Under the pieces are notes generated by a model. That model had not been told where the DNA came from, searched no databases, and worked only from the letters and a program-made list of their open reading frames with translations. DNA of 5,817 nt, taken from the IMG/VR virus record IMGVR_UViG_2713896784_000022; one strand, 5' to 3'. Made by a program: the position numbers and the translations under genes. Shown here piece by piece: positions 270-5,817 of the stretch. Each line of letters opens with the position of its first letter. Position 1 is the stretch's first letter. This DNA is from a virus. Lineage: Duplodnaviria > Heunggongvirae > Uroviricota > Caudoviricetes.

Positions 270-495
270 GAATCCCCCCTTGGTTAGAAGGCGGATTATG
301 ATCAGAATCGGGAATGACAACCGTCGGTATGTGTAACTCATATTTGAGCGCCCCGGCAGTGACTGCCTGAATTAGCAACGCCCATTTCCACGGAACGTCT
401 TCCCCCCACATGCTGACTGTGGTTTTTGACGTTCCTAGAGCGGCGGCTGTTTTAACAACTCCGCCAAAATAGCCTAATACTTCTGATTTTTTCAT
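253..495 (-). CDS. Cro/DicC-like small HTH regulator (80 aa)
   Basis: ORF-track frame 253..543 (minus), trimmed to the ATG at 495, which has a GGAG Shine-Dalgarno about 7 nt upstream (revcomp of 504-507). Product MKKSEVLGYFGGVVKTAAALGTSKTTVSMWGEDVPWKW... has the Cro/YdaS/DicC-type pattern (LG.S...VS.W). Divergent from the repressor gene, as in lambdoid immunity regions. Confidence 0.7.
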   Translation of the reverse strand: MKKSEVLGYFGGVVKTAAALGTSKTTVSMWGEDVPWKWALLIQAVTAGALKYELHIPTVVIPDSDHNPPSNQGGIHENQA

Positions 496-586
496 GAGTC
501 GCTCCATAAAACTGAACGCCAAAAGTTTAATAATCAAAACCAAAGAAAGTCAAGAAACAAAACCATCTGTGTTTTAAAATCAAAAC
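496..586. promoter_or_regulatory. Divergent immunity-region promoter/operator interval between cro-like and cI-like genes
   Basis: 91-bp AT-rich spacer between divergent starts (495 minus, 587 plus). Contains a 20-bp palindrome GTGTTTT-AAAATC-AAAACAT at 569-588 that overlaps the cI start codon, a -10-like TAAAAT at 575-580, and repeated AAAAC half-site motifs. No Shine-Dalgarno precedes ATG 587. Confidence 0.6.
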
Positions 587-1225
587 ATGAACAAGCAAAC
601 AATATCTGAACGCATAACCCAACGTATGCATGCGCTAAACTTGAAAGGCAAAGACCTTGTCAATGCCACTGGCGCATCAAAAGGCTCCGTAAGTCAATGG
701 ATGAACGGTGGAGGAGCGCCGTCCTCGCGTTACATAAGTTCACTGGCAAAGATATTGAAAGTAAACGAAAATTGGCTTCTTAATGGAGGAGAGTTAAATA
801 CAGGTGATTCGCTTGATCTATCTTTACCGCCGATAAAAACGGTTCCGCTACTATCACTTCAGCAGGCAGCAAGCTGGAGTGATTATATGAAAAATTCCTC
901 AATAACCTCTTGTGTGCAGCTTGTCGGAGAAATCCCGGCCAATACCTTTGCTGTTGTTCTAGAGAGTGACAGTATGTCGACATCTGGTGGTGGAGTTTCC
1001 ATCCCAAATGGTTCAACAGTTTTTGTTGATCCCGATCGAATCGTACAACCAGGAAATATTGTCCTTGCCTTACCCAAAGGGACCACAACGCCTGTCATTC
1101 GCAAACTGGAGATAGAAGGGCCGGATATTCTTTTAGTCCCCACGAATCCTCGCTACCCTTCAATTATGCTGGATGATCTATCTTGCATATTGGGAGTATG
1201 CTTTAAAATTCAACAAGATATTTAA
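587..1225 (+). CDS. CI-type prophage repressor: N-terminal XRE-family HTH plus C-terminal S24 (LexA-like) self-cleaving peptidase domain (212 aa)
   Basis: ORF-track 587..1225. N-terminus (ISERITQRMHALNLKGKDLVNATGASKGSVSQWMNGG) is a typical HTH_XRE segment. C-terminus carries the S24 signature serine in ESDSM and a downstream lysine (VIRKLE), consistent with the LexA/CI Ser-Lys dyad. No obvious Ala-Gly cleavage site seen in the linker. Confidence 0.85.
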   Translation: MNKQTISERITQRMHALNLKGKDLVNATGASKGSVSQWMNGGGAPSSRYISSLAKILKVNENWLLNGGELNTGDSLDLSLPPIKTVPLLSLQQAASWSDYMKNSSITSCVQLVGEIPANTFAVVLESDSMSTSGGGVSIPNGSTVFVDPDRIVQPGNIVLALPKGTTTPVIRKLEIEGPDILLVPTNPRYPSIMLDDLSCILGVCFKIQQDI

Positions 1226-1290
1226 CCAACCTCATCTATTTGATTAACTGTATGCCATCGTAGTGATGGCGTAACAGCTGCCTGCTTAAA

Positions 1291-1338
1291 ATGTTTTGAT
1301 AAAAAAACATTGACCTTAAATGTTCGTTTTTCTAAACT
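1291..1338 (+). promoter_or_regulatory. Candidate sigma70 promoter with overlapping operator palindrome upstream of the 1518/1670 operon
   Basis: Perfect palindrome ATGTTTT-GATAAA-AAAACAT at 1291-1310, abutting TTGACC (1310-1315, -35-like), a 17-nt spacer, and TAAACT (1333-1338, -10-like). An A-tract lies upstream. The half-sites are the same as those of the 569-588 palindrome. Confidence 0.4.
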
Positions 1339-2906: not shown

Positions 2907-2930
2907 GCTGCAACGCCCTCTGTTATCAAT

Positions 2931-2988
2931 TTTCTGGTGACGTTTGGCGGTATCAGTTTTACTCCGTGGCTGCTCTGCCGCCCTTTTT
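2931..2988 (+). ncRNA. dicF: DicF-like antisense sRNA (ftsZ translation inhibitor of Qin/dic-type prophages)
   Basis: TTTCTGGTGACGTTTGGCGGTATCAGTTTTACTCCGTGGCTGCTCTGCCGCCCTTTTT matches my memory of E. coli DicF nearly base-for-base (one or two differences). It ends in a GGCGG...CCGCC stem plus U-run and sits about 170 bp upstream of a DicB-like gene, as in the K-12 dicB operon. The exact 5' end (RNase E processing site) cannot be read from sequence. Confidence 0.7.
2946..2988 (+). terminator. Rho-independent terminator forming the 3' end of DicF
   Basis: GGCGG (2946-2950) pairs with CCGCC (2978-2982), followed by C and TTTTT (2984-2988). The loop is large (27 nt), consistent with the DicF structure rather than a minimal terminator. 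Confidence 0.55.
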
Positions 2989-3157
2989 AAAGTGAATTTT
3001 GTGATGCGGTGAATGCGGCTAAGCGCACGCGGAACAGTTAAAACCAAAAACAGTGTTATGGGTGGATTCTCTGTATCCGGCGTTAATTGTTAACTGGTTA
3101 ACGTCACCTGGAGGCACCAGGCACTGCATCACAAAATTCATTGTTGAGGACGCGATA

Positions 3158-3346
3158 ATGGAAACGTTATTACCAAACGTTAATACGTCTGAAGGTTGTT
3201 TTGATATTGGTGTTCTGCTCAGTAACCGGGAGTTTACTGAAGATGCCATTAACATGAGGAAATATGAGCCTTATCTGCTCAATGATAATTCCATACTTTC
3301 CCGAATTGCTCTTCTTGAACTTGGTATTTTCGGAGAACGTCAATGA
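3158..3346 (+). CDS. dicB: DicB-like cell division inhibitor (62 aa)
   Basis: ORF-track frame 3053..3346 trimmed to ATG 3158, which has GAGGA (3145-3149) 8 nt upstream. Product METLLPNVNTSEGCFDIGVLLSNREFTEDAINMRKYEPYLLND... matches the N-terminal half of K-12 DicB as I remember it (MKTLLPNVNTSEGCFEIGV...TEDAIN.RK); the C-terminal half diverges. Same length as DicB (62 aa) and same position after dicF. Confidence 0.7.
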   Translation: METLLPNVNTSEGCFDIGVLLSNREFTEDAINMRKYEPYLLNDNSILSRIALLELGIFGERQ

Positions 3347-3531
3347 CTTCAGCATTTGCACTGATGATGACGGTTTTTCTTATAACGGGTGAATCACAGA
3401 ATGTGATTACCGGAATTTATGCCAGTAAAGAATCCTGCCTCCAGGCAAGAGACGAGCAAAAAATTTCTGGTGAATGCCTCCCGGTAAAAAAAGTATCGCT
3501 GTACCTGAATAACGAAACACCGGCTGGATAA
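3343..3531 (+). CDS. Small protein with hydrophobic N-terminal segment (62 aa); occupies the position of YdfD (Qin lysis protein)
   Basis: ORF-track 3343..3531. ATG overlaps the dicB-like stop (ATGA, coupled translation). N-terminus MTSAFALMMTVFLITG is hydrophobic (signal or membrane-anchor-like) and is followed by a polar, Cys-containing tail. YdfD identity is positional inference only. Confidence 0.55.
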   Translation: MTSAFALMMTVFLITGESQNVITGIYASKESCLQARDEQKISGECLPVKKVSLYLNNETPAG

Positions 3532-3623
3532 CCCTCCAGCCATATTAACACCATACCAACGGATTAAAAATGCCAGCAATGGCAGGGATTTGTTCACCCT
3601 TAAATCTGTAATGAGGTTTATCA

Positions 3624-4868
3624 ATGAGCACTGATAAAGAAGAATTTGCGCTATATTGCGAAGCAAAAAATGACAAAGTCAGAAAACGTCTGGGAATTAA
3701 AGGTGGTTTTTACTGGACTACAGCAAAAAAATTATCTGTTGCCATCTCCCGCTGCATTACCGCAATGGATGACAACGATTATGATGAAGACGACTTTAAA
3801 AAACCCGTTCGCGTCCATTTACCCGTTGTGAATGACCTTCCACCTGAAGGCGTGTTTGATACCGAATTCTGCAACCGATACGAAAAAGGCGGGGAAGATG
3901 GCATTACAATGGTATTTATCGCGCCCTCTCCCTCCGTGCAGGAGAAACCAGCCAGTACTGACAATACCAACGTCAACGGCGAAGACATGACGGAGATTGA
4001 GGAGAATATGCTCCTGCCGGTTTCTGGTCAGGAGCTGCCCATTCGCTGGCTTGCGCAACACGGCAGCGAAAAACCAGTAACGCACGTTGCACGGGAAGAA
4101 CTTCAGGCATTACATATAGCACGGGCGGAAGAACTGCCGGCTGTTACTGCCCTGGCCATTTCTCACAAAACAAAGCTGCTCGACCCGCTGGAGATTCGCG
4201 ACCTTCACAAACTGGTACGCGACACTGACAAAGTTTTCCCTAATCCCGGTAATTCAGACCTGGGACTGATAACTGCTTTTTTCGAGGCATACCTGGACGC
4301 TGACTACACTGATCGGGGTCTGCTGACAAAAGAGTGGATGAAAGGAAATCGTGTTTCGCGTATCACCCGTACGGCTTCCGGTGCAAATGCCGGTGGCGGG
4401 AACAAAACCGATCGCAATCCGAATTTAGTACACACCTTCGATACGCTGGATGTGGAGATTGCAGCAGCCACACTTCCGATGGATTTTAATATTTATGAAA
4501 TTCCGGGCAGCGTTTATCGTCGCGCAAAAGAAATCGTCCTGAAAAGAGAAAGTCCGTTCAAAGAATGGTCCGCAGCACTTCGCGCAACCCCGGGTATTCT
4601 GGACTATTCCCGCGCCGCTATTTTTGCACTTATCCGGAGCGCTCACCCTGAGTTTTATCACTACCCGGGACGCCTTCAGGGGTATATCAACGCCTACTTA
4701 ACGGAGACTGATCACGAGAACCCCAGCAAGGAAACTCTCACTGCTGCACGACATACACCGGAAAAAGATATCCTGGAAGAAGTTAACCGCGAACTGTCTG
4801 CTAAGCAGGAAACAGAAGAAGAAAATGATGAAGAAAAACCGCAACCATCTTGCGCAATGGCAGAATGA
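3624..4868 (+). CDS. Hypothetical acidic protein, 414 aa, unknown function (position corresponds to ydfE of the K-12 Qin locus)
   Basis: ORF-track 3624..4868. GAGG about 7 nt upstream of the ATG. Acidic clusters near the N-terminus (DDNDYDEDDF) and at the C-terminal tail (ETEEENDEEKPQP). No integrase, nuclease or NTPase motif recognised. Its stop lies 16 nt inside the integrase-remnant frame. Confidence 0.7.
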   Translation: MSTDKEEFALYCEAKNDKVRKRLGIKGGFYWTTAKKLSVAISRCITAMDDNDYDEDDFKKPVRVHLPVVNDLPPEGVFDTEFCNRYEKGGEDGITMVFIAPSPSVQEKPASTDNTNVNGEDMTEIEENMLLPVSGQELPIRWLAQHGSEKPVTHVAREELQALHIARAEELPAVTALAISHKTKLLDPLEIRDLHKLVRDTDKVFPNPGNSDLGLITAFFEAYLDADYTDRGLLTKEWMKGNRVSRITRTASGANAGGGNKTDRNPNLVHTFDTLDVEIAAATLPMDFNIYEIPGSVYRRAKEIVLKRESPFKEWSAALRATPGILDYSRAAIFALIRSAHPEFYHYPGRLQGYINAYLTETDHENPSKETLTAARHTPEKDILEEVNRELSAKQETEEENDEEKPQPSCAMAE

Positions 4869-5401
4869 TAATCAGAAGAAATCTGGCAAAAGACCGTTTT
4901 ACAGTACCAAAAACACAGGCGGGAACCAATCGTGTGATTCACCTTATTAAGCCCGCAATCGACGCTCTCCGGAGTCAGATGGCACTAACGAGACTGAGCA
5001 AAGAGCATATCATCGATGTTCACCTCAGAGAATTCGGCAGAACAGAGAAACAAAAATGTACCTTTGTTTTTCAACCTGAAGTGTCAGCGAAAGTAAAAAA
5101 TTATGGCGACCATTTTACCGTTGACTCAATAAGGCAGATGTGGGACGCAGCGGTAAAGCGTGCCGGAATCCGCCATCGCAAATCGTATCAGTCGAGACAC
5201 ACTTATGCCTGCTGGTCGTTAACAGCAGGAGCTAACCCGGCATTCATTGCAAACCAGATGGGCCATGCAGATGCGCAAATGGTGTTTCAGGTGTACGGGA
5301 AATGGATGTCAGAAAATAATAATGCGCAGGTAACGCTGTTAAATACACAGTTAAGCGAGTTTGCCCCAACCATGCCCCATAACGAAGCGATGAAAAGTTA
5401 A
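4850..5401 (+). pseudogene. Truncated tyrosine recombinase (phage integrase) C-terminal catalytic fragment
   Basis: ORF-track 4850..5401 (TTG start; in-frame stop at 4829-4831). Retains the beta-hairpin lysine context (VPKTQAGTNRVIHL), the box II motif SRHTYACWSLTAGANPAFIANQMGHADAQ, and the nucleophile tyrosine (VFQVYGKWM). The N-terminal arm/core-binding domains and the box I arginine (TGxR) are absent. The integrase frame is closed 7 codons upstream of 4850 and the preceding sequence encodes the unrelated 414-aa ORF in another frame. Confidence 0.65.
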
Positions 5402-5578
5402 TTTTTTATTTATCAATTAGTTAGATTGAATGACTCTTGAAATCCATAATTCATAGATGTTTTTTACTATTCTGTGGGTTTTTGGGTGTTTTCTAAGTTT
5501 TTTCAGATGGTTGTATTTTTTCTAAAAATCCCTAATCTCGATTTTGCTGTTTATTTGAGGCCTTTTTATGTCCCATAT

Positions 5579-5817
5579 ATGCCCCACAGATACCCCGCAG
5601 CCAAAATCAACAAAATGCCAAAAGGTTCTGTTCCTGCCCTGCAACAAGAAATGCTGCGACGTGTCAGTAAACGTTATGACGATGTAGAAGTGATCATCAA
5701 ATCCACCAGCAACGATGGCCTTTCAGTTACTCGCACCGCCGATAAAGATTCTGCAAAAACTTTTGTTCAGGAGACGCTGAAAGATACCTGGGAGTCTGCT
5801 GACGAGTGGTTTGTTCG
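5579..5817 (+). CDS. DinI-family protein (prophage-type DinI paralog), 3' end cut by window edge; alternative start at ATG 5615
   Basis: My own translation (frame not in the ORF track because no stop lies in the window): ...[67 protein letters not shown]. It aligns with E. coli DinI as I remember it (...LAGELSRRI...LSVIGATKEDKQRISEILQETWESADDWFV). Starting at 5579 makes the N-terminus the same length as DinI. Neither candidate start has a good Shine-Dalgarno. Confidence 0.7.

Follow-up and report, generated by a model that had tools for sequence, protein, structure and literature searches.

Putative operators of one specificity at the cro–cI switch and ahead of ydfA, dicF and dicB in an Escherichia coli O157:H7 prophage

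The window analysed here, a 5,817-nucleotide (nt) stretch of caudovirus DNA (IMG/VR record IMGVR_UViG_2713896784_000022), very probably carries both the immunity region and the early-left operon of a lambdoid prophage integrated in ydfJ of Escherichia coli O157:H7. A TGTTTT-N6-AAAACA palindrome lies at the start of its repressor gene, cI, and another at a promoter ahead of ydfA. In all likelihood these palindromes are operators of the prophage's own CI/Cro pair, in a lambdoid switch with right and left operator regions (OR and OL) of one specificity, the consensus being roughly A-TGTTTT-N3-ATC-AAAACA-T at both places. We also consider it highly likely that the promoter ahead of ydfA, termed leftward below, would drive ydfA, a 216-amino-acid (aa) open reading frame (ORF), the small RNA gene dicF and dicB. 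An original prediction, made from the letters of the window, had proposed that a single immunity regulator acts at both promoters. A motif that is not random, its retention in relatives and its co-variation across six immunity types all support that proposal, and the co-variation is the strongest evidence for it.

Two palindromes share their arms and spacing

The palindromes occupy 569–588 (GTGTTTTAAAATCAAAACAT) and 1291–1310 (ATGTTTTGATAAAAAAACAT), with the coordinates and letters originally given for them. As had also been described, the first overlaps the repressor start codon (ATG, 587–589) and a −10-like element (TAAAAT, 575–580), and the second abuts a −35-like TTGACC (1310–1315), the first T of which is the last base of the site. 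Calling them the same 20-bp palindrome holds for the 6-bp arms and their spacing, which are all that the two have in common, but not for the spacers and outer bases. The reverse strand of the second site (ATGTTTTTTTATCAAAACAT) equals the first at 16 of 20 positions. Arms of 7 bp are fully complementary only at 1291–1310, the outer bases at 569–588 being G and T; the description of the second site as a perfect palindrome is thus true of its arms and not of its 6-nt spacer.

TGTTTT-N6-AAAACA occurs exactly twice in the window (570–587 and 1292–1309), compared with 0.01 occurrences expected from dinucleotide-preserving shuffles, and none of 200 shuffles contained two matches. Allowing up to two mismatches added no further site in the window. 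The proposed search for more copies in the rest of the prophage was run over a 49.9-kb O157:H7 stretch containing all of it, and no other exact copy was present.

The motif changes with immunity type

In many E. coli prophages, similarity to the window is confined to ydaT at its left edge and to the sequence from about position 1350 onwards, with unrelated DNA between the two. We compared the window with five such heteroimmune types: two helix-turn-helix (HTH) types, RacR, another S24 type and K-12 DicA. Each of the six types has its own palindrome in the cro–repressor intergenic region, and repeats it at the promoter before a shared ydfA leader, where the copies flank the −35 or overlap the −10. 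The repeats present at both places were as follows.

This window: TGTTTT-N6-AAAACA
L003 and L007: TACCCATGGGTA
L004: GTAC-based repeats
L005 (RacR type): TTAGGC-N3-GCCTAA, in the intergenic region and at the ydfA promoter
L006: GTAAC-N6-GTTAC
L009 (K-12 DicA): TGTTAG-N6-CTAACA

Pairing was scored as the best 18-nt ungapped match between each intergenic region and each promoter region. The true pairing gave the top total among 720 permutations (1/720 as good). Across the types, identity to the window proteins was 14–33% for CI and 18–34% for Cro, and 84–91% for YdaT. Because the motif changes with CI and Cro while YdaT stays nearly the same, the motif tracks CI/Cro and not YdaT. Operators, promoters and repressor genes thus appear to form one exchangeable module.

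The leader (1350–1517, + strand) marks the right-hand boundary of this module. Homology with the five other immunity types begins at about 1350, a few bases past the predicted transcription start, and the leader of ~170 nt is near-identical in at least five heteroimmune types. K-12 Qin retains only its last ~45 nt. The possibility that 1345–1525 is a structured, nut- or put-like RNA was rejected, as Rfam returned only noise and the fold had z = +0.92 relative to shuffled sequence.

About five putative operators surround the repressor gene

The features of the switch and of the operon beyond it are listed here in window coordinates.

Running off the window at position 1, − strand: ydaT (CII analogue), downstream of the cro-like gene
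253–495, − strand: cro-like gene, 80 aa, P22_Cro family (Pfam PF14549, E=1e-15)
496–586: cro–cI intergenic region, 91 bp
523–542: OR1-like putative operator AAGTTTAATAATCAAAACCA, overlapping the −10 of the cro promoter (repeat family D1; 20.7 bits in the OR matrix)
524–553, − strand: predicted PR-like cro promoter, −35 TTGACT (553–548), 18-bp spacer, −10 TAAACT (529–524) (consensus scan, 9/12)
546–565: OR2-like putative operator AAAGTCAAGAAACAAAACCA, overlapping the −35 of the cro promoter (repeat family D5)
569–588: OR3-like putative operator GTGTTTTAAAATCAAAACAT, over the −10-like TAAAAT (575–580) and the cI start codon (587) (exact TGTTTT-N6-AAAACA)
587–1225, + strand: CI-type repressor gene, 212 aa, HTH and S24 domains (Pfam HTH_3, Peptidase_S24)
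1226–1517: intergenic region from the repressor gene to ydfA, 292 bp
1254–1270, + strand: hairpin GCCATC-GTAGT-GATGGC, 29 nt past the cI stop (−15.9 kcal/mol with extension, z = −3.0)
1291–1310: OL2-like putative operator ATGTTTTGATAAAAAAACAT, abutting the −35 of the PL/dicBp-like promoter (exact pattern; 18.0 bits in the OR-only matrix)
1310–1338, + strand: predicted PL/dicBp-like (leftward) promoter, −35 TTGACC (1310–1315), 17-bp spacer, −10 TAAACT (1333–1338) (consensus scan)
1320–1339: OL1-like putative operator ATGTTCGTTTTTCTAAACTT, extending from the spacer across the −10 of the leftward promoter (11.6 bits, OR-only matrix)
1518–1670, + strand: ydfA (Pfam DUF1391)
1670/1682–2320, + strand: 216-aa ORF (212 aa from the alternative start), function unassigned (phrog_2151)
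2932–2983, + strand: dicF small RNA (Rfam DicF, 75 bits)
3158–3346, + strand: dicB (Pfam DicB)

The original picture of two sites was correct for both but incomplete, since they are two of about five. The repeat finder grouped the OR1-like site (as 524–542) with the two palindromes in family D1. The right half of the OR2-like site, AAGAAACAAAACCA, echoes 529–542 at a distance of 23 bp, and 575–588 lies another 23 bp on, such that the right halves AATAATCAAAACCA, AAGAAACAAAACCA and TAAAATCAAAACAT begin at 529, 552 and 575 in exact 23-bp steps. This periodicity points to three sites, at 523–542, 546–565 and 569–588, with lambda-like spacing. The left half of the OR2-like site is degenerate. It is the weakest call of the five, and we regard this middle site as a probable rather than an established operator. 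The −10 of the predicted cro promoter falls within the OR1-like site and its −35 within the OR2-like site; the putative OR sites thereby overlap the sole promoter-like hexamer pair facing cro.

A symmetrised weight matrix was built from these three cro–cI sites alone and scanned across the window. Its best two matches elsewhere were 1291–1310 (18.0 bits) and 1320–1339 (11.6 bits), with the next at 9.7 bits. The repeat finder also reported 1319–1337 as an inverted match of 1293–1311 (inverted-repeat pair I4), and every other immunity type compared has a site at the OL1-like position. The OL1-like site, too, is a probable but not an established operator. No third site was recognisable 23 bp either side of these two.

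From the repressor gene to ydfA, the + strand has a single sigma-70-like match, TTGACC-17-TAAACT, from which a transcript would be expected to start near 1345. Between this promoter and dicB, the only terminator-like site on the + strand is dicF's own (2966–2981), as in K-12, consistent with the earlier suggestion that the 216-aa ORF, dicF and dicB come under immunity control.

Prophages with the same repressor keep the sites

Two phage records carry a cI product 98% identical to that of the window, named 'repressor protein cI'; these records are prophages predicted in clinical genomes rather than induced phages, and are uninformative on inducibility. A protein-database search gave further relatives of the repressor, at 84%, 83% and 73% identity, for which the contigs were also retrieved. 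Prophages whose repressors are 98%, 84% and 83% identical retain the sites, with only single-base changes. Absence of the palindrome from prophages with the same repressor had been named as an outcome that would count against the shared regulator; instead, the palindrome is retained down to 83% aa identity. In six relatives the OR1-like site is invariant apart from its last-but-one base and the OR2-like site is invariant throughout; the OR3-like site has one substitution, in a single relative (L013). The OL2-like half-sites are kept except for a TGTTTT→TGTTTA change (L013) and a 1-base deletion (L016), and in L015 the 5 bases directly upstream of the second palindrome are replaced and the palindrome itself is untouched. 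Substitutions concentrate between the sites, at 519–521, 564–568, 1286–1290 and 1315–1322.

About 1,040 complete E. coli genomes hold at least 80% of the immunity module, mostly at 98–100% identity. When one genome per species was scanned for repressor relatives, the only matches were unrelated S24 fragments from Mycobacterium and Alicyclobacillus.

The repressor protein and the cI transcript

The repressor joins an N-terminal HTH resembling those of P22 C2 and the 434 repressor to a C-terminal S24 domain resembling that of lambda CI. Residues 1–69 of P22 C2 align with its residues 1–69, and lambda CI aligns with its residues 13–204. In the alignment, ESDSM supplies the counterpart of lambda Ser149 and IRKL that of Lys192; the S24 catalytic pair is therefore present. 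Lambda CI is cleaved at Ala111-Gly112. Neither an Ala-Gly nor a Cys-Gly scissile bond was found in the window protein, in which the lambda QAG aligns with QAA (LQQAASW, residues ~90–100). The 83% relative has the same Ala-Ala residues, and the S24 repressor of L006, at the same locus, has QAG.

No Shine–Dalgarno sequence precedes the cI ATG (587), and the cI messenger RNA is possibly leaderless, like that of lambda cI. The missing Shine–Dalgarno at the true start probably misleads gene callers: RefSeq calls only the C-terminal 112 aa (887–1225; 6648–6986 in the complete O157:H7 genome L001) as a 'LexA family protein', despite an intact 212-aa ORF. phrog_8558 (function unassigned, 114 positions) matches precisely residues 101–212 of the repressor and may derive from such truncated gene calls. 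At the other end of the gene, the hairpin at 1254–1270, which has no U-run, keeps its stem in relatives while its loop varies, and may form the end of the cI messenger RNA. In the L006 type, a canonical terminator occupies the equivalent position.

A promoter-like TTAACA-18-AATACT lies at 452–481 (+ strand), inside cro and directed at cI. Its placement resembles that of PracR4/PRE of Rac, which YdaT activates (PMC11879457).

Proposed regulation and alternative explanations

The 212-aa repressor, a dimeric HTH protein encoded between the sites, would recognise the operators, and the divergent Cro-type protein probably also binds them, as in other lambdoid phages. Repressor dimers on the sites over the cro and leftward promoters would keep both silent: 523–542 and 546–565 cover the −10 and −35 of the predicted cro/ydaT promoter, and 1291–1310 and 1320–1339 flank the −35, and extend over the −10, of the promoter that would serve ydfA, the 216-aa ORF, dicF and dicB, as the counterpart of lambda PL and K-12 dicBp. 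The site at 569–588, covering the cI −10-like element and start codon, could serve negative autoregulation or the shut-off of cI by Cro. The promoters would open once the repressor is lost or the switch turns to the Cro state. We infer from the sequence how the proteins are assigned to the sites, how their affinities rank, where transcription starts and that repression occurs.

Several observations weigh against this reading or limit the evidence for it. The relatives with the same immunity are close (at least 83% aa identity, intergenic DNA 86–95%), so conservation alone has limited power. All of the promoter calls are consensus matches, at 9/12, and such matches are no commoner here than in shuffled sequence. 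The OL1-like site scores only ~2 bits over the best background match, and the OR2-like site, at 11.8–14 bits, scores below the best background hit in a 50-kb scan. OL1 and OL2 are spaced by 29 bp, compared with 23 bp in OR. The two best palindromes are those farthest from the −10 of the outward promoters, the reverse of lambda OR1/OL1 and of the K-12 operator Oc. Finally, a leaderless cI transcript starting at 587 would put the centre of the OR2-like site at about −31 of the cI promoter, which is not the position from which lambda CI activates PRM. The reversed site order, the 29-bp spacing, the centre near −31 and the Ala-Ala residues would be compatible with wiring that departs modestly from the standard scheme. 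It is conceivable, if unlikely, that the wiring differs from that of lambda and K-12 Qin, with the strongest sites used for autoregulation, by Cro or in short-range OL–OR looping, and with dicF/dicB in O157:H7 uncoupled from RecA-mediated cleavage despite the SOS-cleavable look of the CI. The position of the best palindromes, one across the cI start and the other just ahead of the leftward −35, ~720 bp away, together with the Ala-Ala residues, would fit such a variant switch.

The same placement, away from the outward −10 elements, speaks for the view that the two perfect palindromes are mainly Cro sites (compare the preference of lambda Cro for OR3) and that the CI-type repressor acts mostly through the weaker sites at 523–542, 546–565 and 1320–1339, in which case the shared motif would reflect anti-immunity rather than immunity control. 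In K-12, DicC is required to switch dicBp on (PMC10448788), and across the immunity types Cro changes with the motif as much as CI. Against this view, characterised lambdoid CI and Cro proteins use all the same operators, differing only in affinity order. The five sites have a common half-site, (A/T)TC(A/T)AAAC, and the sequence assigns no site to either protein alone. Weighing these points, we judge this division of the sites improbable.

Explanations outside the CI/Cro pair fare worse. Sites of a comparable format are published for the CII-like tetramer YdaT in Rac, each 18 bp long and split by a 6-bp spacer (ATGATT-N6-AATCAA), some of them within the racR–ydaS intergenic region (PMC11879457); the 6-N6-6 layout of TGTTTT-N6-AAAACA is similar. 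The arms, however, are unlike the YdaT box, a search for that box gave six matches at up to three mismatches against 3.9 expected, with no enrichment, and YdaT is 84–91% identical over five immunity types that have wholly different palindromes. YdaT binding is accordingly very improbable, and YdaT was rejected as the binder on the co-variation. Scarcely credible is a chance inverted repeat in an A/T-rich region, or a terminator or attenuator at 1291–1310 that ends the cI transcript. RNA of 1290–1311 does fold (−5.7 kcal/mol, z = −4.2), but the hairpin is weak, being made of A-U and G-U pairs plus a single G-C, and UUGACC follows it instead of a U-run; the terminator scan did not report it, and the palindrome was rejected as an intrinsic terminator. 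Chance, for its part, faces the expectation of 0.01, the three further matching sites and the co-variation with immunity type. Operators of the prophage's own CI and Cro remain our preferred explanation.

Comparison with known systems

The original comparison with DicA, which represses dicBp, is sound and has published support (PMC10448788, PMC3441716). In K-12 Qin, the dicA–dicC and dicA–dicBp regions hold operators that have been compared to those of lambda PR and PL, with dicBp likened to PL (PMC10448788, citing Bejar et al. 1988). Deletion of dicA raises dicBp 22-fold, and a polycistronic dicBp transcript yields DicF and DicB (PMC10448788). DicA binds in vivo to a 20-nt inverted repeat, Oc, TTGTTAGTCATAACTAACAA (PMC3441716). 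The window shares with K-12 Qin the ydfJ site and the order cro-like gene, repressor, promoter, ydfA ... dicF, dicB, ydfD; the ydfA, dicF and dicB segments are homologous (88–96% DNA identity). The −35 of dicBp is also TTGACC with operators on both sides, and both systems have 20-nt inverted-repeat operators of TGTT-N10-AACA geometry, Oc included, in both intergenic regions. The window repressor (212 aa, HTH and S24) is only 25% identical to DicA (135 aa, no S24), the operator arms are TGTTTT rather than TGTTAG, and neither a DicA orthologue nor Oc was found. The best palindrome of the window adjoins the repressor gene, whereas that of K-12 adjoins the cro-like gene, and the 216-aa ORF replaces ydfB and ydfC. 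Judged from sequence, then, this system is one that would work like DicA–dicBp with a different immunity specificity, its repressor not being a DicA orthologue.

The window also resembles lambda and P22. Divergent cI and cro genes flank a short intergenic region with three putative operators ~23 bp apart over back-to-back promoters, and further copies of the motif stand at the promoter past the far end of cI, which would drive an early-left operon towards int. The repressors share the HTH plus S24 architecture, and the cI start lacks a Shine–Dalgarno sequence as in lambda cI. The window differs in having only two recognisable sites at its leftward promoter, 29 bp apart, in its Ala-Ala where lambda has Ala-Gly, and in an apparent order of site quality that is reversed. 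Its OL–OR distance is ~720 bp, compared with 2.4 kb in lambda.

With RacR/YdaS/YdaT of Rac and PaaR2/YdaS/YdaT of CP-933P the window shares the arrangement of cro with a CII-like ydaT and the presence of several intergenic repressor operators, RacR having several in its own intergenic region (PMC11879457). It differs from them in repressor family and operator sequence and in lacking the paaA2-parE2 toxin–antitoxin genes.

The layout originally singled out, one motif at two promoters, is real, but the arrangement is that of a standard lambda OR/OL switch and nothing unusual. It is ordinary and already published for the K-12 homologue; only the present operator specificity appears to be uncharacterised. 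We found no published account of it in the literature, and an article on O157:H7 DicC (PMC6915034) gives nothing on operators or the locus. These results leave the general picture of such switches as it was. What they give is the likely operator sequence and promoter layout silencing one O157:H7 copy of dicF/dicB, and they indicate that, whichever repressor module lies upstream, the dicBF promoter moves with it. This is useful for predicting cross-immunity among lambdoid prophages of pathogenic E. coli and for designing reporters of dicBF induction.

Prophage context and other features of the window

Positions 1–2856 are 100% identical to the chromosome of E. coli O157:H7 strain TR01, and 2907–5817 are 99.8% identical to it. 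The matching TR01 stretch is the early end of a ~40-kb lambdoid prophage in ydfJ, the Qin site of K-12. The cro-like gene, whose product is labelled 'Cro/CI family transcriptional regulator' in NZ_CP033605.1, is the first gene of the rightward, PR-like operon, with ydaT next; a GGAG Shine–Dalgarno sequence lies 7 nt ahead of its ATG on the − strand. The remaining genes are as follows.

2321–2530, − strand (opposite to the operon): 69-aa ORF (phrog_4274)
3343–3531, + strand: ydfD-like gene
3624–4868, + strand: RecE-like ORF
4850–5401, + strand: integrase remnant

A run of 50 N at 2857–2906 is an assembly gap, an artefact rather than masked sequence. The 13 bases GCTGCAACGCCCT are duplicated either side of it, and a complete O157:H7 genome is continuous there, so the true sequence is 63 bases shorter than the window. 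Past the gap (2907–5817), the window differs from the complete O157:H7 genome (L001) by seven single gaps and zero substitutions. These look like homopolymer errors of a draft assembly, because of which the reading frames of the RecE-like ORF and the integrase remnant may be unreliable.

Within the operon, an in-frame ATG at 1437 could lengthen ydfA to 77 aa. The 216-aa and 69-aa ORFs have no Pfam domain and both belong to phage protein families without known function; the two convergent ORFs stand in the place of K-12 ydfB/ydfC.

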